Positions 1,024-45,910 of a DNA stretch of 50,552 nt are shown here, one piece after another (the first letter of the stretch is position 1; each line of letters starts with the position of its first letter). Position numbers and translations under genes: made by a program. Under the pieces are notes generated by a model. The model was not told the origin of the DNA. It saw only the letters and a list, made by a program, of their open reading frames with translations, and searched no databases. Source of the DNA: Shigella phage vB_SflS-ISF001; sequence record MG049919. One strand, given 5' to 3'.

Positions 1024-1051
1024 GAAAAGGAGGCTTAGCCTCCTTTTATTT
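1024..1051. terminator. bidirectional rho-independent terminator
   Basis: GGAGGC-TTA-GCCTCC hairpin flanked by A-run and T-run between convergent genes. Confidence 0.6.
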
Positions 1052-1439
1052 CGTCCTTACGAATTGAAAAATAAACCAGCAATAGGCCAATGAAAACGAG
1101 AGTCCATCCTGCAATTGCACCGTACCAGTTTTCTGGCTTTGTTACTGTGATGCTTTCAGCGTTAACCGTGTTAGCCTTAATGGTTGACACTTCAATTAAC
1201 TTCTTCAAGGAAGAGTCAATCTTTCCTACATTGGACTCCACAACTTTAACATCTCGCTTATCTTCGGATTTTGCGCTTACTCCTGCTAATTGCTTTGTGT
1301 TCACCTCTCCGCTTTGTGCTGTAACTTCCGGTTTAGATCCGATTAAACCGCTCAGGGCAGATGCCGTAGAGCAACCGGATAGAGAAATAACACCATCAGC
1401 CACTGTAATCGCAATGCACGTTATCTTCAGTTTCATCAT
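1035..1439 (-). CDS. unimolecular spanin (lipoprotein with C-terminal TMD)
   Basis: N-terminal signal with lipobox LSGC, C-terminal hydrophobic helix [20 protein letters not shown]; ATGA overlap with endolysin stop; architecture of T1 gp11-type u-spanin. Confidence 0.7.
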
Positions 1440-1924
1440 AATTCCTTATCGCAATACGCGGATTCTTCAGCGCGACGGTTCTTGAGTCCTCTAGACACTT
1501 CTCGCTTAAATGTAAATGGGTTGTAGTACGGTACCCATCGCCATGGCTGATTGCACGCTTCCTTGTGCTTACTCTGATTTTTTAGCTTAAGCATTGTAGA
1601 AGATCCGAACGCGCCAGTTCCAACGTTGTAAGTGAAGCTGTACAGTGACGCGCGCATCGTTACCGGAATTTCAACATTCACCTTTTTGTCAACGTATCGC
1701 TGAGCGACGCCGATTTGTCGTGTCAGCAATGCCGCGCATTCTCGCGGAGTGTATTTCTTACCTGGTATGACGTCCGGCCCGGTTATTCCGCTGCATACGG
1801 TAGGGACTCCGGCTATATCGTAATACACCTCGTATTCTATACCTTCGATTCGTTCCAGTAGGGTTGGAGTCAACGTCAAAGCGGCCCCGATCGATGCGCC
1901 TTTAACGTTATTTTTTAAGCTCAT
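1436..1924 (-). CDS. endolysin, GH24 phage lysozyme (P22 gp19-like)
   Basis: [23 protein letters not shown] and [12 protein letters not shown] match catalytic E-x8-D-x5-T region and C-lobe of phage lysozyme family; sits between holin and spanin. Confidence 0.85.
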
Positions 1925-2139
1925 TATATCCCCCTGATCTTAAGCACCTTATTTAGATCGCCATCGATTAACGCTTCCTGAATTGCCTTACTATCACGAT
2001 ACTTCCAGTATGCACCCCAGGCACCAAAAAGCAGATAGCAAATGAATGTAGCGCCAGCAATATAAAGTAGCCCTGTCGCCGCCTCTACCAACGAAGCACC
2101 GCCCGTGCTTAACGTAGCTGCTGTTAAAAATTCTATCAT
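1924..2139 (-). CDS. holin (two predicted TMDs)
   Basis: Small protein with two hydrophobic segments and charged C-terminus directly upstream of endolysin; start placed at internal ATG with GGTGAG RBS (track ORF extends to a TTG at 2202). Confidence 0.6.
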
Positions 2140-2257
2140 AATCTCACCATATATTTTTTGAACAAGTGAGTCGATTTTAACCTTCAAATTTACTTGATAC
2201 AACGCAAAAAGGCCAGCATGTAAATCATGCCAGCCTGTAAGGTGATGAATGATATTG

Positions 2258-2434
2258 TTAATCTAGCTCAATAAATTCCAGGTAATGACCGTTCAGAGGG
2301 GCTTGGATTGTTGAACCTCTACCATCGTAAATCTCAAACAATCCACCTCCGAAATCATAACCAACACTATAGATCTGATTTACGCGGAATGGAAGCGTTT
2401 TGGAATCATTTCGGATGCACTTAACTCGTTTCAT
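2258..2434 (-). CDS. hypothetical small protein (58 aa)
   Basis: Not in ORF track (<60 aa); ATG preceded by AGAGGG RBS at 7 nt; fills gap between holin and phosphoesterase gene. Confidence 0.35.
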   Translation of the reverse strand: MKRVKCIRNDSKTLPFRVNQIYSVGYDFGGGLFEIYDGRGSTIQAPLNGHYLEFIELD

Positions 2435-2497
2435 GAAATACCCTCTTTGTTTTCTATGTGGTCAATATACCCGAATCCCTTCGGGCGTTTTTATCAA

Positions 2498-3649
2498 TTA
2501 GTGCGATCCTGTCTTTTCTGGACGATAGATGAAGCGACCGTTTTCCCCAAACTGCTTATCGTAACCAATTACAGCCGCCCGGCGATATGAGCGCCACTCT
2601 CCGCGTGCTGCGTATGCGACTTTCGCGCCTAACTGACCGTGTACTTCATCAATACCAAGCGAGTGCTCAGTGATTGTCTGGTGATGCCAGTGACCAGTAT
2701 GAGTATACACATACTTGCTCTCACCGAAGTCTGATCGGAAATCTGCCACCATTGCTGCAAGTCGCGTGTCTGCCTTTTTCATAGTGTGCCCGTGAGTGTA
2801 TCCCAACAAGGTATTTGCCCAACGAGTCTTATGCAGAATCATAGGACTAACGTCAACGAATACTAGCGGCTCGTCTTCATAATATGCCGACATTGCAGCT
2901 CGCAGCCAAATCTTCCCAGACTGATCGTGGTTCCCTTCGATAACCTGGACCTCTACTTCTATGTGTTTCATAAGCATTTTGTCGATGGCTCGGCGTACCG
3001 AACGAATCCCAACATGCACTAATTTTGCGTATCGTGAATCCTGATCAAGAACGTGATCACTTGCCGGGGTAACTGCATCAAGGCCGTCAGAGTGAAGGAA
3101 GTCGTCGCCGATTAACAGAACGGCCTTCTCTGCGTTCGGTGCGATATCGATCACGTAATTAAAGAAGTCGCTAAGCACTTTTACCGCTACGTCGGTGGAA
3201 TAGTTCTCACCGCATTCATGCTTATGAGCAAGCCCGCCAATATGGAGATCGAATACCGGATAGAGTGCCAGCTTACCCATCGCTATCGTAAGCCCTTGCG
3301 AGGTTAGTAGCTCGGTTGGCTTTGCTCGTGGCAGGACTTCACAGAATGCAATACGCGCAGCTTCCATCATTGCCGCAATCTTCTCAGGGTCCTGATCGGT
3401 CTTAACCCATCGCACTACCTCGGTACCATCGCCGCGACTCATCGTTGATGTGCCTTTTACCATGAATCCTTCCGGTACGTTCTTAGCATCATGCTCGTTA
3501 CCGTGGAAGTGACCTTCTTTTGCAAGTTTGGCGTGACGCCCTTCAACTGTGCGGATGTGCATACCGTACTTTTCCGCGATCTCGCGAAGTCTTAGGCCAT
3601 TCATGCGCTCTTCGACAAGTTGTTCGGTAGTGATTTTAGCTAGTGACAT
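2498..3649 (-). CDS. HTH-domain / calcineurin-like metallophosphoesterase fusion protein
   Basis: N-terminal 50 aa helix-turn-helix-like segment (LRLREIAEKYGMHIRTVEGR); then phosphoesterase motifs DLHIGG, GDDFLHSDG, GNHD, GHTH, GHWHH; AGGA RBS. Confidence 0.7.
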   Translation of the reverse strand: MSLAKITTEQLVEERMNGLRLREIAEKYGMHIRTVEGRHAKLAKEGHFHGNEHDAKNVPEGFMVKGTSTMSRGDGTEVVRWVKTDQDPEKIAAMMEAARIAFCEVLPRAKPTELLTSQGLTIAMGKLALYPVFDLHIGGLAHKHECGENYSTDVAVKVLSDFFNYVIDIAPNAEKAVLLIGDDFLHSDGLDAVTPASDHVLDQDSRYAKLVHVGIRSVRRAIDKMLMKHIEVEVQVIEGNHDQSGKIWLRAAMSAYYEDEPLVFVDVSPMILHKTRWANTLLGYTHGHTMKKADTRLAAMVADFRSDFGESKYVYTHTGHWHHQTITEHSLGIDEVHGQLGAKVAYAARGEWRSYRRAAVIGYDKQFGENGRFIYRPEKTGSH

Positions 3650-3727
3650 ATTTTAATCCTTACATGATAATGAAATACATTACTAAAAATGAAATTAGCG
3701 GTGTCAATACTACAGCAAAATAAAGAT

Positions 3728-4129
3728 TCATACCACAGCCTTTAACCAGAATCCTAGATCTGACCATTTAAACTCAACCAGCTTTGCGTCAACCTCAAGC
3801 ATCATACTGTTTATACCAGGTGAGTAATAACCTATATGCAACACCTGATCGATCCCTATGCTACACAGCACGTTTGCGAAGTCAGGAGGCAACCAAACAG
3901 AGAAAGGTGTTTTCTTAACCTGCTTCTTTCCGATCCATATGGTCTGGTAAGCGTCTCCGTTAATGTTTAAGCCTGGAAGGCTTGTTGTTCTTTGCTGCTT
4001 TTCGCTCTCTCTCATTTCTCTTTCCCTCTTCACGATAAAACTCAAGTGACGGAGTTGCTGGCACTCTATGCATTTTTCTCGGCATATCTTCCATAAATGA
4101 AATCTTGCCGTTTGAAATAATGCTAACAT
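3728..4129 (-). CDS. hypothetical protein (start uncertain; alternative internal start near 4018)
   Basis: ORF track; ATG at 4129 has poor RBS spacing, internal ATG at about 4018 has AGGGAAAGAG RBS; no domain recognised. Confidence 0.4.
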   Translation of the reverse strand: MLALFQTARFHLWKICREKCIECQQLRHLSFIVKREREMRESEKQQRTTSLPGLNINGDAYQTIWIGKKQVKKTPFSVWLPPDFANVLCSIGIDQVLHIGYYSPGINSMMLEVDAKLVEFKWSDLGFWLKAVV

Positions 4130-5506: not shown

Positions 5507-5526
5507 GTTTTAACAAAAAGTGCTAT
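5507..5526 (-). promoter_or_regulatory. 20-mer motif copy upstream of Dam methylase gene
   Basis: Minus-strand ATAGCACTTTTTGTTAAAAC; CATTAT 22 bp downstream. Confidence 0.55.
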
Positions 5527-5939
5527 TTCGTTAAATCGTATATTGCCAGCTTGAATTGCTCAAATCCGTATGCAACGGCAGAGAATCCACCGCGATCCCG
5601 AACCTTTTTGAGAAACTCCCTTTGCTTATCGCTGACTGGTGACGCCTTTCCCTTGCCGGACTTATTAACCCGTTTGAGTTCGATAGCTGCGAACGGGTAA
5701 CGTGAGTTTACACCAATCAGGATAACGAAATCTGACACACCTTTAAGTAATCCAGCCTGCTCATCCCTGAGTGCTGAAGTGATTGTTTTTTCACCTTCAT
5801 TTACAGTGTGCCAAAATAGAAGGTGTGGGAAGTTGTATTTCAGCCAGGAAACGCAATCTACCTGATGAGCGTCCTCCTTTCTCGTGTCGCTAGGATCTCT
5901 CTCGTAAAATTCTAAATAATCACCTTTGTCTGTAATCAT
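5523..5939 (-). CDS. VRR-NUC domain nuclease (PD-(D/E)xK)
   Basis: GVSDFVILIG...AAIELKRVNKSGKGKASPVSDKQREFL matches VRR-NUC D/E-x-K core; start placed at ATG overlapping helicase stop (ATGA); track ORF extends to 6083. Confidence 0.7.
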   Translation of the reverse strand: MITDKGDYLEFYERDPSDTRKEDAHQVDCVSWLKYNFPHLLFWHTVNEGEKTITSALRDEQAGLLKGVSDFVILIGVNSRYPFAAIELKRVNKSGKGKASPVSDKQREFLKKVRDRGGFSAVAYGFEQFKLAIYDLTK

Positions 5940-7954
5940 TCCGGGATATCCTCCATACCAAAGTCTTTTCGTGAGATAATATCTTCTTTCTTCTGGTTGC
6001 GACGATGAGTTACGCGCACCCGGTGAGCAATATGATGTGAGTATTGCAAAATCTTGATGGCGTTCTTCATTCCGATAAAGCATCGGCGCATTTTAGGATC
6101 CGATACGTGTAGCAATACAGCTTTAGTTTTCCATAGCGTACCGCAAATCTTAGAGTCAGACTCGGGGAAGCATTTTTCATACCCCTTGAACTCATCACCA
6201 TCATCGTTAATAAGAGTGTATTTGAATATTATGCCTTTCTGGTTTTTGGTTAGCGTAACCTCAAAATTCTTTACTTCATACCAGTCATTCTTAGTGTACG
6301 CCTTACCGGATAACTTCAGGTTAGGATCGACAAGCGAAACATCACAGCAACGACAGACTCGGGCCACAACGTCATTCTCTGCACCACATCCTTTAACAAG
6401 GATTTTTCCGGTGCGCTCGTCAACCTGGTCCTCACAAATCTGAGAAGTCCAGAAATGATCGCAGCGTTCACCATCAATGACATTAACGCATCGTCGAGCA
6501 TAGAAGCTATTTACGCAACCGCATTTCGGACATGTTTTCGGATCTTTGCCGTTTTCAAAACGCTTTTGGAATTGTGCCTGCTCAAGTATCGGATCGAAAT
6601 AAAGCTGACCCAATTCATCCATCGTACCTGCGAAATCCCATACCAGATGGTCCTGCTTAACCATTCCCTCAGCAACCTGCCAGGGTATAAGCAGACGCAT
6701 ACCCCTACCCAAAAGTTGAATCAACAGTGTGAGCGACCCTATCTTGCGGAGTTTGACACTGTAATCCCAATTTGGAACGTTACCGCCAGTAGTGAGTGCC
6801 ATTACCTGAAAGGTGTATTTAATTTTCCCAGCCCTCACATCGTCCAAGATTTTCTTGCGCGTTATGGTGTCTGTGTCGCCAGTAATGATTGCATAGGTGC
6901 TTCCTGGTGGAAGCGCTGCCGCCGCCTCCTTGCAGTGACGCACCCCGGCGCATGTAATCAGTACCGCGTTACGCTCTTCAGCCTTTTTGGCAACCATTTG
7001 CATGATTCGCTGCGTAAGAGATTTATCATGAAGGATCTCATCTACCATTGCCTTCATATCTTTCTCTGTAAAGTCCTGCACTCCGTCCTCGCTCGACGCC
7101 TTGAACTTATCCAGATCGTAGTGTACGCCGTCAGTTGAATCGAATATCGTCGGAACGACAGAGCCGAACTCAATCAGATAGTTTGTGTCGATATCAGTTA
7201 CTCGCTCACGCCAGAATCCCAATGCTTTCGGATTCACTACCAGAATAGGAACTACGCCACGAAATTCAGATCCAGTCATACCAAATATTCTGAGATCGTG
7301 ACCGTGAACCTTTTTACAGCGCCGCATCATTTCCATGATTACGATCGTGTACTGACTGCGCTTAGTTCCAAGCAAAGGCTTTCCATCATTACCAATCAGG
7401 GGAATATCTCCATCCATGATGATTTTTCCCTTCTCGCCCGTCATTTGTTCCATTGTTTCCTTGCCCTCAATGGCTTGCGCAAGGTCTTCCCAATCCTCCT
7501 GGTGACATTCGTCGATCCCAATTACATGCGGGACGAAATCAGCAAGCTCATTGTCGAGGCCATTTGCAACAGTACCCTCTGAGCCTACCACGATAGGAAA
7601 ATAGCAGGACTTAATACCTAATGAGGCTGAGTATATGGAGATAGTTACCCCAAAGTTGTCAATCTCCTCGCTATCCTGATCGACAATCTCACCCTGGCGA
7701 GCCTGAACGAGCTTTTTTAAGCCCATTTTCTGACACTGCTTTACAACCATAGCATAAATGATGCTCTTAACCGCAGATACTGACGCTTTAACAAAGAATG
7801 GATGCTCGTAAATTGATAGGCGTATCGCGATCTCAGCATAAGCAACAACCTGATACGGATAAGGAACAACCTCACCGACAGTGAATTGCTCCTGAGTTCG
7901 CTTTATACAGTCCTCGCCACGTCCTACAATCAGCTTTTTAATGTTCATTGTCAC
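5936..7954 (-). CDS. SF2 (DEAD/SNF2-like) helicase with Cys-rich C-terminal zinc-ribbon region
   Basis: Motif II GIDECHQ, motif VI QLLGRGMRL, C-terminal CPKCGC...CDH and CRCC clusters; GTG start with AAAGGA RBS at 9 nt. Confidence 0.7.
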   Translation of the reverse strand: MTMNIKKLIVGRGEDCIKRTQEQFTVGEVVPYPYQVVAYAEIAIRLSIYEHPFFVKASVSAVKSIIYAMVVKQCQKMGLKKLVQARQGEIVDQDSEEIDNFGVTISIYSASLGIKSCYFPIVVGSEGTVANGLDNELADFVPHVIGIDECHQEDWEDLAQAIEGKETMEQMTGEKGKIIMDGDIPLIGNDGKPLLGTKRSQYTIVIMEMMRRCKKVHGHDLRIFGMTGSEFRGVVPILVVNPKALGFWRERVTDIDTNYLIEFGSVVPTIFDSTDGVHYDLDKFKASSEDGVQDFTEKDMKAMVDEILHDKSLTQRIMQMVAKKAEERNAVLITCAGVRHCKEAAAALPPGSTYAIITGDTDTITRKKILDDVRAGKIKYTFQVMALTTGGNVPNWDYSVKLRKIGSLTLLIQLLGRGMRLLIPWQVAEGMVKQDHLVWDFAGTMDELGQLYFDPILEQAQFQKRFENGKDPKTCPKCGCVNSFYARRCVNVIDGERCDHFWTSQICEDQVDERTGKILVKGCGAENDVVARVCRCCDVSLVDPNLKLSGKAYTKNDWYEVKNFEVTLTKNQKGIIFKYTLINDDGDEFKGYEKCFPESDSKICGTLWKTKAVLLHVSDPKMRRCFIGMKNAIKILQYSHHIAHRVRVTHRRNQKKEDIISRKDFGMEDIPE

Positions 7955-38049: not shown

Positions 38050-38575
38050 CCACCCCGTGAGATTTTAAATGATCGTGAACGTTATCGCCATAGACAACTA
38101 CAGCGTAAGTGGTTATTGCAAGCGAGCGGAATAATGGAATAATTTGCGGTGAGTCATCCCAGGCCGCCAGAATGTTATCAATCCCGATCACGCGCACCGC
38201 CTCTTCTTTCATTGCTGTGTCTTTCCGGCTATCGGTGTGTGGTCGCATAATCAGGTAATCATATCGAGCGCCGTGATGCTTAAGCAACAACTCATATGCG
38301 TAACGCACCTCATCACTTCGCCCGGTCAAAATGATCACATGATAACCAGCGGAAAACGTAGAGTTCATCACACCGATCGTGCTTTGGATAGGGTTGTCAA
38401 ATATTGCCGCGCGGTTAAACTCGGACCAGATTTCAGTCAAGTGCAAATCTTTTGTCGGCAGCAAATGACGTCTACCGGATCCGTCATTAAGTGTCCCGTC
38501 AGAGTCAAAGATTGCGCCGCGGCGCAGACCGAGATACAGGTTGATTGTCTGGCCCCAAATGGTGATTTTATCCAT
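38042..38575 (-). CDS. HAD-superfamily phosphatase (polynucleotide 3'-phosphatase-like)
   Basis: HAD motif I FDSDGTL near N-terminus; CAGAGGAA RBS; promoter cassette upstream. Confidence 0.6.
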   Translation of the reverse strand: MDKITIWGQTINLYLGLRRGAIFDSDGTLNDGSGRRHLLPTKDLHLTEIWSEFNRAAIFDNPIQSTIGVMNSTFSAGYHVIILTGRSDEVRYAYELLLKHHGARYDYLIMRPHTDSRKDTAMKEEAVRVIGIDNILAAWDDSPQIIPLFRSLAITTYAVVVYGDNVHDHLKSHGVDE

Positions 38576-38640
38576 GATTTATTCCTCTGATTGGTTGCTT
38601 AACTCAACGAAGGGCATTCTAACAAATGCCCTTGAGCAAG

Positions 38641-45145: not shown

Positions 45146-45205
45146 ACTCGGTCGGGTAGGTCGGGTATAGTCCGGCCCATAAACCAATCAGAAGAGGAAG
45201 CAACA

Positions 45206-45910
45206 ATGAAATTAATCTGGTCACTATACGACGGTTCTGGTCTTGCAAATCTTGAGCTAGCAAAGCAAGGCCATAAGGTGATGTGCTTCAACTGGGACGG
45301 AGCCGATCACGGAGTTTACGCAAAGTACAACGCCAGGGTTGAGCGTCATAACATTGAGTATGTGAACGTCTTTATTAATGAGAAGTTCGAACGTGATGCT
45401 ACCGCGCCTGTGTATGGCAAGCCTGATTTAATCAGGGCATTTCCTCAATGCACTGACCTGGCTGTTAGTGGCGCTGGTCACTTCGTAAGAAAGCGTGAGC
45501 GAGATCCGTTATTCCAGGAGAAGGCTGTTGCTACCGCCGGGATTGCTGCGAATATTGGCGACTCTCTTGGCGTGACTTACATATTTGAGAATCCGGTGAG
45601 TGTCCTGTCATCTGCCTGGAGAAAACCAAATCACTCCTTCAACCCCTGGGAGTATGGCGGCTATCTTCCTGAGAATGACGCACACCCCAAGTTCCCTATG
45701 TATATTGCGCCGCGCGATCGTTATCCGAAGAAAACTTGTCTTTGGACCTCGGACGATTTTGTCACACCGGAGAAAAAAAAAGTAAGCCTGCCTGACGGGT
45801 ACTCTACGCATCACAGCAAGCAGGGCAGCAAGTCGGTAAAGACGAAGCTGATACGATCCCTGTCGCAGCGTGGATTTTTCCCGGCGATCGCAAATAGCAC
45901 TTTTTGTTAA
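45206..45910 (+). CDS. putative DNA methyltransferase (weak C5-cytosine-like motifs)
   Basis: LYDGSG (motif I-like), FPQCTDLAVSGAG (PC-motif-like), IFENPV (ENV-like); ATG with AGAGGAAG RBS (track ORF from 45137); assignment tentative. Confidence 0.4.
   Translation: MKLIWSLYDGSGLANLELAKQGHKVMCFNWDGADHGVYAKYNARVERHNIEYVNVFINEKFERDATAPVYGKPDLIRAFPQCTDLAVSGAGHFVRKRERDPLFQEKAVATAGIAANIGDSLGVTYIFENPVSVLSSAWRKPNHSFNPWEYGGYLPENDAHPKFPMYIAPRDRYPKKTCLWTSDDFVTPEKKKVSLPDGYSTHHSKQGSKSVKTKLIRSLSQRGFFPAIANSTFC

Follow-up and report, generated by a model that had tools for sequence, protein, structure and literature searches.

The window analysed here is the whole sequence of record MG049919 (50,552 nucleotides, Shigella phage vB_SflS-ISF001), which is a complete T1-like phage genome. 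The ORF list and translation place an open reading frame at 2498..3649 on the minus strand, with an ATG start, 383 codons and a stop. The encoded protein combines a helix-turn-helix (HTH) segment with a metallophosphoesterase (MPE) domain and is referred to as HTH-MPE. It is the orthologue of T1 gp16 (ST16), and its match to PHROG 704 is full-length.

A Shine-Dalgarno-like AAGGA lies at 3657..3661 (minus strand), 8 nt 5' of the ATG; this putative site was read from the upstream sequence only. A GC-rich hairpin at 2470..2485, to which no strand was assigned in the feature list, separates the stop codon from the next gene (SH3-like, DUF7244) and is a candidate terminator. The terminator scan reported it on the plus strand, and the T1 annotation has a rho-independent terminator just past ST16, at the position of this hairpin. 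No sigma-70 promoter of consensus type was reported upstream of the gene. The repeat ATTTCATT upstream of the gene was considered as an autoregulatory operator and rejected, as its 16 genome-wide matches against 9.8 ± 2.8 expected are not an enrichment. The region upstream of the HTH-MPE gene thus yielded no operator candidate with enrichment.

Domain architecture of the protein

The N-terminus is modelled as a tri-helical HTH domain (3515..3628, minus strand; aa 8-45), with helices at residues 8-16, 21-27 and 32-44 in the AF2 model and a block pLDDT of 88-94 across residues 11-40. The HTH-like string LRLREIAEKYGMHIRTVEGR begins at aa 19. Reading the sequence, L21-A40 matches the canonical Ala5/Gly9/Val15 pattern of the HTH as Ala25/Gly29/Val35. 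The Pfam matches of the 383-aa protein itself to HTH_23 and HTH_28 were weak and sub-threshold (E 0.05), those of its relatives were stronger (best E 7e-6), and the PDB sequence search gave a weak LuxR-type HTH match (E 0.2). Residues I24, A25, M30, R33, V35, E36 and R38 are invariant in T1-like sequences. An N-terminal extension, 42-212 aa long, is present in all 30 diverse aligned relatives, many with Pfam HTH matches. Conservation is lowest in the HTH, where the mean pairwise identity is 20%, versus 40% for the MPE domain. Judging from the model, the N-terminus is an HTH fold, and it is predicted to bind DNA.

The HTH is linked to the catalytic domain by a connector of a β-hairpin and a helix (3335..3475, minus strand; aa 59-105), modelled as strands 62-71 and 77-86 and helix 88-104. 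P59, G75 and W81 are near-invariant family-wide. A homologue from a Campylobacter phage has no HTH; its match starts at query aa 66, and the connector is kept.

The calcineurin-like MPE catalytic domain occupies 2501..3283 (minus strand; aa 123-383). All five motifs of the superfamily set (DxH, GD, GNH[D/E], H, GHxH) are present, and the alpha/beta-sandwich MPE fold was found in the model. Motif I is D134-L-H136-I-G-G (3233..3250, minus strand), with D134, H136 and G138 invariant. Motif II is G181-D-D183-F-L-H186-S-D188 (3086..3109, minus strand), with D183 and H186 invariant and D188 near-invariant; its GDxxH form resembles the 'GDLFH' of Mre11. Motif III is G239-N240-H241-D242 (2924..2935, minus strand), with N240 and H241 invariant. 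Motif IV is H286-G-H288 (2786..2794, minus strand) in the context T-H286-G-H288-T, with H286 invariant and H288 near-invariant. Motif V is G319-H320-W-H322 (2684..2695, minus strand), with G319 and H322 invariant and H320 near-invariant. In the AF2 model the sandwich is completed by the C-terminal ~60 residues past motif V, and the domain has no extra C-terminal capping domain. The first AF2 model, made from T1-like sequences alone, had a pLDDT of 68 and was replaced by the model from a diverse alignment.

An insert between motifs II and III (3032..3085, minus strand; aa 189-206, 'AVTPxSGHxLDxDxR') is family-specific and conserved in the alignments. T194 is invariant in it, and L201, D202 and R206 are near-invariant; the model pLDDT is lower here, about 67-70. 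The insert is a candidate substrate-binding loop, a role that we infer.

The metal ligands D134, H136, D183, N240, H241, H286 and H322 are invariant among the 30 aligned relatives, which share only about 30-40% identity with the 383-aa protein; therefore the motif set is no chance match. This strict retention of catalytic ligands in the alignment argues for an active enzyme. Beyond single positions, the diverse alignment contains no conserved run of 7-10 columns. The 383-aa protein had no Metallophos match in Pfam (PF00149/PF12850) even at E<=1, so its membership of the calcineurin-like superfamily rests on motifs and fold. Nine of the 30 relatives matched PF00149 at E<=0.01 (best 2.7e-5). The catalytic domain is most likely an intact binuclear MPE of the nuclease-type branch (Mre11/SbcD/PolD-DP1-like).

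The first-pass annotation had described this fusion of an HTH with a calcineurin-like phosphoesterase without giving a strand. The architecture is borne out by motifs, fold and AF2 helices, and the gene lies on the minus strand. Three of the motifs it quoted are found as written (DLHIGG at aa 134, GDDFLH at aa 181, GNHD at aa 239); the fourth, 'GHTH', does not occur literally, and the real strings are THGHT and GHWH. It had named as counter-evidence a place in a well-characterised housekeeping phosphatase family and an N-terminus that is not a DNA-binding fold, and neither applies. Profile searches showed no such family, and the modelled N-terminus is an HTH.

Distribution of the family

PHROG 704 ('DNA repair exonuclease') was matched with E 1.8e-142, aa 4-379 aligning with profile positions 2-388 of 390. 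It was the sole exception among searches of Pfam, NCBIfam, PADLOC and PDB sequences with the protein and profiles, which otherwise gave nothing significant. The second PHROG match, PHROG 284 ('exonuclease'), was weak (E 3e-7). It was considered as the SbcD family, and this was ruled out by the mapping of SbcD to PHROG 100. ISF002 gp05 ('DNA repair exonuclease') shares 97.7% nucleotide and 93% amino acid identity, and T1 gp16 shares 66% amino acid identity over the full length. Identity to T1 is about 90% across the first 70 residues and about 61% in the rest, so the gene looks mosaic.

Some 2,000 sequenced phages, including Dhillonvirus, Jersey-like, Vibrio, Rhodobacter, Flavobacterium and Thermus phages, have a homologue, and 1,376 protein clusters match at E<=1e-30. 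The AAS23 homologue was detected in virions. Family members are labelled 'DNA repair exonuclease' or 'phosphoesterase', and TLS gp66 is a 'proof-reading exonuclease'; these labels are purely computational. In the BFVD search, the matched relatives were all unnamed or computationally labelled. The literature searched, which covered Drexlerviridae, escape mutants, transcriptomes and the degradation of host DNA by T1, contained no biochemical or genetic work on PHROG 704 members, and no experiments on the family were found in the papers on BASEL, retrons, Metis and PUA-Cal-HAD.

An exonuclease-holin-endolysin-spanin module is present in 508/522 Drexlerviridae (PMC13164509). In Drexlerviridae (the T1 family) the gene belongs to the persistent core and is near-universal. 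The initial view of it as an unusual fusion and not a standard phage module is thus refuted by the T1 gp16 orthologue, by PHROG 704 and by the counts of phages given above. The finding is modest, in that the architecture is real yet common and already catalogued. Few non-structural genes of T1-like phages are as well conserved as this one, and many phages carrying homologues are phage-therapy candidates.

Genomic neighbourhoods and possible functions

The lysis cassette lies downstream of the gene, and the genes for a Dam methylase, a VRR-NUC nuclease and a helicase lie upstream, as had been noted at first reading. The position upstream of the SH3, holin, endolysin and spanin genes is common to the ISF001 genome, ISF002 and T1, and the lysis-cassette arrangement also occurs in Webervirus. 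In Drexlerviridae without the SH3 gene, the commonest next genes are those for a polynucleotide kinase and a dNMP kinase (KanT1 paper, PMC13164509). The gene order is MPE, HAD_PNKP phosphatase and dNMP kinase in Webervirus, and MPE, NT5C deoxynucleotidase and dNMP kinase in a Thermus phage. These neighbourhoods, and the DNA ligase and Holliday-junction resolvase genes near the homologue of a Campylobacter phage, point to DNA and deoxynucleotide metabolism.

With a probability of about 50%, we consider HTH-MPE to be a Mn-dependent DNase, tethered to DNA, that would break down host DNA and/or process phage DNA. We infer DNA as the substrate, metal dependence, DNA binding by the HTH and the role in vivo. 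The HTH, together with the hairpin, would keep the enzyme attached to duplex DNA. The two-metal centre, which probably uses Mn2+, would cleave the phosphodiester bonds of DNA with exo- and/or endonuclease activity. The enzyme would act without a Rad50/SbcC partner; no such ATPase gene is annotated in the collinear ISF002 genome, and none adjoins the MPE gene in 15 contexts examined. As with T5 A1, the host chromosome would be degraded to mononucleotides, which would supply the synthesis of phage DNA, and a possible additional role is the trimming or debranching of phage replication and recombination intermediates, as for T7 gp3/gp6. The presence of an N-terminal extension in all 30 relatives, often with an HTH, fits a DNA-directed enzyme. 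Several points speak against a DNase: kinship to SbcD or T5 A1 was not demonstrable at the sequence level, phage DNA would need to be spared from such a nuclease, and the nuclease activity of T5 A1 is itself a prediction and not an in vitro result. In many temperate phages, moreover, the MPE gene comes last, behind the lysis cassette; a gene so placed is probably expressed late, and this is unexpected for an enzyme of nucleotide salvage. Of the three activities proposed in the first-pass annotation, DNA nuclease is best supported, by the fold neighbours, the neighbourhoods and the T5 A1 analogue; hydrolysis of signalling nucleotides and protein dephosphorylation are less supported.

A nuclease could also serve phage DNA only, in replication, recombination or repair, by end resection, hairpin opening and debranching before headful packaging, with no demolition of host DNA. 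It would be a stand-alone Mre11-like enzyme beside the Erf/RecE-like pair, VRR-NUC and the helicase. The top structural neighbours of the fold (PolD DP1, Mre11 and SbcD) are in line with this, as are the position of the gene at the close of the helicase, VRR-NUC and Dam string and the curator names of exonucleases in repair and proof-reading. In Campylobacter phage F372, the HTH-less MPE homologue directly follows a DNA ligase gene with a Holliday-junction resolvase near, and ATP-dependent ligase genes lie no more than a few kb from the MPE gene in two temperate-phage contigs. However, the protein has neither a Rad50/SbcC-like partner nor a capping domain, the genome already encodes an exonuclease VIII-like nuclease, an Erf annealase and the VRR-NUC nuclease, and the curator names are computational labels only. 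In two distant lineages the MPE gene adjoins dNMP kinase and nucleotidase genes, which agrees better with nucleotide salvage. We regard a role confined to phage DNA as rather unlikely.

The kinase and phosphatase neighbours also allow another substrate. Calcineurin-type MPEs can be cyclic phosphodiesterases, as are those of Clostridium thermocellum Pnkp and the lambda phosphatase. HTH-MPE could then be an end-healing phosphoesterase (2',3'-cyclic phosphodiesterase/3'-phosphatase) that works with a phage HAD-type PNK phosphatase and, in the manner of the MPE of bacterial Pnkp, mends RNA or DNA ends that defence nucleases of the host have damaged. The HAD_PNKP phosphatase-domain protein encoded by the next gene in Webervirus agrees with this, and a polynucleotide-kinase-like gene often adjoins in Drexlerviridae (PMC13164509; PMC8004638). 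We give end healing only a small chance.

An endolysin gene lies within a few genes of the MPE gene in 11 of the 15 contexts, from about seven lineages. It could be proposed that the protein is a transcription regulator or has a lysis-linked late function, in which the HTH steers late or lysis genes, or unpackaged DNA is cleared at lysis, and the MPE domain is a sensor or a secondary activity. The module conserved in Drexlerviridae and the weak likeness of the HTH to LuxR and to sigma-70 region 4 are compatible with this, and P0062 carries a precomputed PF08281 domain. Against it, every catalytic ligand is strictly kept, which argues for catalysis as the main function; the HTH is less conserved than any other part and is missing from the Campylobacter phage homologue. 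Lysis cassettes are common module boundaries, so the adjacency of the MPE gene may be historical and not functional. A regulatory or lysis-linked role appears improbable to us.

As a phosphodiesterase, HTH-MPE might instead hydrolyse cyclic oligonucleotides, cNMPs or similar small signalling nucleotides and so blunt CBASS, Pycsar, Thoeris or type III CRISPR-type immunity. Known anti-signalling enzymes use other folds: Acb1 is a 2H enzyme, and Apyc1 is a metallo-β-lactamase. The gene is a stable core gene and not a variable accessory, the N-terminal extension, often with a Pfam HTH, is kept family-wide, the neighbourhoods concern DNA and nucleotide metabolism, and PADLOC, which holds host defence-system models, gave no match. 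An anti-signalling enzyme is accordingly a poor candidate.

Within the preferred DNase reading, a more specific proposal can be made. T1 degrades the host chromosome, and T1 gene 2.5 mutants defective in this degradation transduce more often. Gene 2.5 is not known to have been assigned to an ORF. HTH-MPE proteins of the T1 gp16 type may be the nuclease with which T1-like phages demolish the host chromosome, possibly gene 2.5 itself, and a fused, single-chain counterpart of T5 A1 that converts host DNA to dNMPs in about 2,000 siphophages. Its link with the lysis cassette would then be a timed late clean-up of unpackaged DNA. We put this proposal forward tentatively, as possible but doubtful.

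If the enzyme degrades host DNA, the classical T1 phenotype gains an enzyme, and the nucleotide supply of the polymerase-less T1-like phages is partly explained. The risk of transduction would be affected as well, and so would the sensitivity of the phages to defences triggered by DNA breakdown products. A true demolition nuclease would limit generalised transduction and would yield mononucleotide danger signals for Metis and PUA-Cal-HAD, which are sensors of m6dAMP.

Comparison with known nucleases and phosphatases

The double-strand-break nucleases Mre11 and SbcD have a capping domain and a Rad50/SbcC partner, whereas HTH-MPE lacks both and has an N-terminal HTH instead. It has no significant profile match to Mre11/SbcD; hhalign against E. 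coli SbcD gave a probability of 2.4%, and SbcD belongs to PHROG 100, not PHROG 704. The archaeal PolD small subunit DP1, a 3'-5' proofreading exonuclease, is 11% identical to HTH-MPE. DP1 has the catalytic partner DP2, while T1-like genomes encode neither DP2 nor a phage DNA polymerase. The Pseudomonas putida 'Nuclease MPE'/PdeM (TIGR04123), a ligase-associated DNA-damage-response endonuclease, scored 17.1 bits against a cut-off of 150, and the match of HTH-MPE covers aa 219-264 only.

Lambda NinI (lambda-PP) is, like HTH-MPE, a phage-encoded member of the MPE superfamily. The lambda MPE phosphatase gene also lies near Q and the lysis genes. HTH-MPE might by this likeness be a Ser/Thr/Tyr protein phosphatase that rewires host or phage phosphoproteins. 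The PPP-type protein phosphatase signature (GDxHG / GDxVDRG / GNHE and PPP fold details) was not found in HTH-MPE, and we consider this function very improbable.

The pre-early protein A1 of phage T5 offers the closest parallel. Its N-terminal part is a DNA-binding domain, and a nuclease domain is predicted at the C-terminus (bioRxiv 10.1101/2022.08.27.505566). A1 has been described as a predicted metallo-phosphatase similar to nucleases of DSB repair and proofreading, and as both required and sufficient for the degradation of host DNA (bioRxiv 10.64898/2026.04.02.716235). The fold neighbours of HTH-MPE fall in these nuclease classes too. As in HTH-MPE, the C-terminal part of A1 carries a complete MPE motif set, which is invariant in the A1 family alignment, and some A1 relatives have N-terminal Pfam HTH domains. 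A1 is encoded near the dNMP phosphatase Dmp, and HTH-MPE near nucleotide-metabolism genes in some lineages. There are also differences. A1 matches PHROG 1745 only, is 556 aa long with a middle region of ~230 aa that HTH-MPE lacks, and acts with a separate DNA-binding protein, A2. The hhalign comparison of HTH-MPE with the A1 family gave a probability of 46% (E 2e-4) over 56 columns, local around motif III, and 16.5% with 211 versus 120 sequences. The resemblance lies in the design and does not prove homology; T5 A1 would be the best functional analogue of HTH-MPE.

The HTH-MPE gene and its genomic context

The genome is a complete T1-like genome (Tunavirus, Drexlerviridae) and is collinear with that of Shigella phage ISF002, and the HTH-MPE gene shows 97.7% nucleotide identity between the two. 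This gene (window 2498..3649, minus strand) has 383 codons and an ATG start, with an AAGGA ribosome-binding site 8 nt ahead of it. The first-pass annotation had read its product as a helix-turn-helix (HTH) segment fused to a calcineurin-like metallophosphoesterase (MPE), and the ORF, the motifs, the invariant ligands and the modelled helices all agree with this. The quoted strings LRLREIAEKYGMHIRTVEGR (aa 19), DLHIGG (aa 134), GDDFLH (aa 181) and GNHD (aa 239) were found as it had listed them, but the literal string GHTH was not: motif IV is T-H286-G-H288-T, and motif V is G319-H320-W-H322.

The gene order also agrees with the neighbourhood named earlier, a lysis cassette and methylase, nuclease and helicase genes. 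Downstream, a 58-aa DUF7244/SH3-like gene is followed by the genes for holin, endolysin and spanin. The DUF7244 gene (SH3 clan; window 2258-2434, minus; Pfam E 8.5e-29) lies between the HTH-MPE gene and the holin, and its standalone SH3 protein was recently described as a frequent component of the Drexlerviridae lysis module (PMC13164509). Upstream are three small genes of unknown function (PHROGs 4596, 2180 and 2676), and beyond them lie the Dam methylase, VRR-NUC nuclease and helicase genes. The longest ORF of the PHROG 4596 gene (window 3728-4129, minus) has 133 aa, the ISF002 annotation covers only its last 95 codons, and its start codon is uncertain. The longest VRR-NUC ORF (186 aa, window 5523-6083, minus) and the helicase ORF (5936-7954, minus) overlap by ~150 nt at the 3' end of the latter; the ISF002 and T1 annotations give a shorter VRR-NUC (138 aa) that starts at the helicase stop, which implies translational coupling. 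Collinearity with ISF002 (L016) also places in the genome a second DNA methyltransferase besides Dam (window ~45200-45900) and a short (~177-aa) 'polynucleotide kinase' gene (window ~38060-38600). By analogy with the HAD_PNKP match in Webervirus, the latter may be the 3'-phosphatase domain alone.

A widespread family with a variable N-terminus

The fusion had been considered unusual. Along its full length the HTH-MPE protein matches PHROG 704 (E 1.8e-142; labelled 'DNA repair exonuclease'), its T1 orthologue ST16/gp16 shares 66% identity, and tblastn found a homologue in 2,011 of 50,697 phage records. This indicates a common, conserved gene rather than an odd fusion. The hosts included Escherichia (560), Klebsiella (468), Salmonella (373), Vibrio (254) and Campylobacter (59), among others, and a distant Thermus homologue used as query retrieved the same phage set and, in addition, phages of Flavobacterium and Lactobacillus. 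When 1.84 billion cluster representatives were searched exhaustively with an HMM, there were 5,404 matches for a threshold of E<=1e-3 and 1,376 for E<=1e-30; the majority are 370-420 aa long. The literature searched contained no experimental study characterising a PHROG 704 member.

All 30 diverse relatives aligned carry an N-terminal extension (42-212 aa) ahead of the conserved core, and the N-termini match varied Pfam HTH families (HTH_8, Sigma70_r4(_2), MarR, HTH_1, HTH_11 and others), so that HTH plus MPE is the standard architecture of the family. A Campylobacter phage homologue (317 aa) has no HTH. Conservation is lowest in the HTH, with a mean pairwise identity of 20% versus 40% for the catalytic domain. 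Compared with T1 gp16, aa 1-70 (window 3440-3649) are ~90% identical and aa 71-383 (2498-3439) ~61%. This step suggests either a breakpoint at which recombination joined the HTH/hairpin to the catalytic domain or far stronger N-terminal constraint within Tunavirus.

Predicted fold and active site

The HTH-MPE protein received no curated MPE family assignment from Pfam or NCBIfam; 9 of the 30 relatives matched Pfam Metallophos. Relatives only ~30-40% identical to the protein invariably keep the metal ligands D134, H136, D183, N240, H241, H286 and H322. The AlphaFold2 model, built from a diverse alignment, was confident (pLDDT 87.2, pTM 0.78) and contains N-terminal helices (aa 8-16, 21-27 and 32-44), a long beta-hairpin (aa 62-71 and 77-86) with a helix (aa 88-104), a poorly conserved linker, and an alpha/beta sandwich from ~aa 123 to the C-terminus; it has no additional capping domain.

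The structural neighbours of the model were the PolD DP1 proofreading exonuclease (score 15.4, 211 residues aligned), Mre11 (14.6), SbcD (14.2), the MJ0936 phosphodiesterase (13.7), YfcE (12.4), Rv0805 and GpdQ (12.0), P. putida Nuclease MPE (9.0, with the highest identity, 21%) and PPP protein phosphatases (about 8.5). The score margin in this modelled comparison favours a nuclease, though not decisively. A strongly conserved family-specific insert, 'AVTPxSGHxLDxDxR' (aa 189-206), lies between motifs II and III, and R262 and R356 are near-invariant; these are candidate substrate contacts.

Neighbourhoods, function and known counterparts

The order in Klebsiella Webervirus is MPE, HAD_PNKP phosphatase, dNMP kinase and then holin, and in Thermus phage Lalka27b it is MPE, NT5C-type deoxynucleotidase and dNMP kinase, so that two very distant lineages have the three-gene pattern in common. 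In Drexlerviridae without the SH3 gene, polynucleotide kinase and dNMP kinase are the commonest genes directly after the HTH-MPE gene (KanT1 paper, PMC13164509). In Campylobacter phage F372, an HTH-less homologue directly follows DNA ligase, with a Holliday-junction resolvase nearby. These neighbourhoods point to DNA/deoxynucleotide metabolism and speak against a signalling or protein-dephosphorylation role. A signalling-nucleotide phosphodiesterase is an improbable reading, and a protein phosphatase a more improbable one still. An end-healing phosphoesterase is also an unlikely reading. The combination of a nuclease-like MPE gene, a HAD-type (deoxy)nucleotide phosphatase and a dNMP kinase recurs in unrelated phages (Webervirus K2064PH2, L018 4492-6730; Lalka27b, L008 4692-7384), and its T5 counterpart is A1 paired with the dNMP phosphatase Dmp (L017 124-3376). 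The pattern suggests a shared nucleotide-salvage module.

An endolysin lies within a few genes of the HTH-MPE gene in 11 of the 15 contexts examined, from ~7 independent lineages (window 1035-3649, minus; loci L005, L006, L012-L015 and L018-L020). The gene is upstream of the lysis cassette in Tunavirus and Webervirus and between the lysis genes and terS in Dhillonvirus; Rhodobacter casjensvirus and Vibrio and Rhizobium phages are also among these contexts. In five contigs from temperate phages it is the final gene on the late strand, following the lysis cassette and adjoining attP/integrase or the prophage end. In the temperate-phage contig L014 (10604-11914), a T6SS-type Hcp, Rap1a immunity and Tae4 amidase effector trio directly follows the MPE gene, as cargo flanked by the late operon and the integrase side. 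The adjacency of the HTH-MPE gene to lysis genes may reflect a real late lysis-linked function or module history, and a regulatory or lysis-linked protein seems a doubtful reading overall. LC-MS/MS of purified virions identified the homologue gp38 ('phosphoesterase') of Pantoea phage AAS23 (PMC8004638). It may have been a contaminant or be truly associated with the virion; in the latter case the nuclease might be ejected, and the model would have to change.

We believe that the HTH-MPE protein would be a DNA-tethered, metal-dependent DNase, whose likeliest job would be to degrade host DNA for nucleotide salvage in the manner of T5 A1, with processing of phage DNA intermediates as a possible additional job. 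We give a DNase with a host-DNA role a probability of about one half; a DNase restricted to phage DNA is a less likely but tenable alternative. The older literature describes a host-DNA degradation phenotype of T1 and its 'gene 2.5' mutants.

Profile comparison gave no assignment of the family to Mre11/SbcD (hhalign probability 2%): SbcD belongs to PHROG 100 and the HTH-MPE protein to PHROG 704, the SbcC/Rad50 partner and capping domain that define Mre11/SbcD are both missing, and no PDB entry related in sequence was found. The family is thus its own branch within the MPE superfamily, with the nuclease clade structurally nearest.

T5 A1, a pre-early protein, is a predicted metallo-phosphatase likened to double-strand-break-repair and polymerase-proofreading nucleases, its own nuclease activity being so far putative (2026 preprint, bioRxiv 10.64898/2026.04.02.716235). 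It was modelled earlier with an N-terminal DNA-binding domain and a C-terminal nuclease domain (bioRxiv 10.1101/2022.08.27.505566). The MPE motif set is complete throughout the A1 family, and several homologues have N-terminal Pfam HTH domains, so at least two MPE families of phages have evolved or retained the HTH plus MPE design. The A1 homologues concerned, relatives of ~530 aa with a recognisable Pfam HTH, are P0407, P0409, P0410, P0411, P0413, P0437 and P0449; P0409 and the A1 relative P0440 lie in replication/nucleotide-metabolism modules (topoisomerase and ribonucleotide reductase; primase-helicase-polymerase; loci L021 and L022). A1 belongs to a different PHROG, and hhalign (probabilities 46% and 16%) did not demonstrate homology beyond that of the superfamily. 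Both Dmp and A2, a DNA-binding protein, are encoded near A1, and the two systems share a design logic, a DNA-binding module plus a nuclease-like MPE module adjoining nucleotide-pool enzymes. T5 A1 is the closest functional precedent for the HTH-MPE protein.
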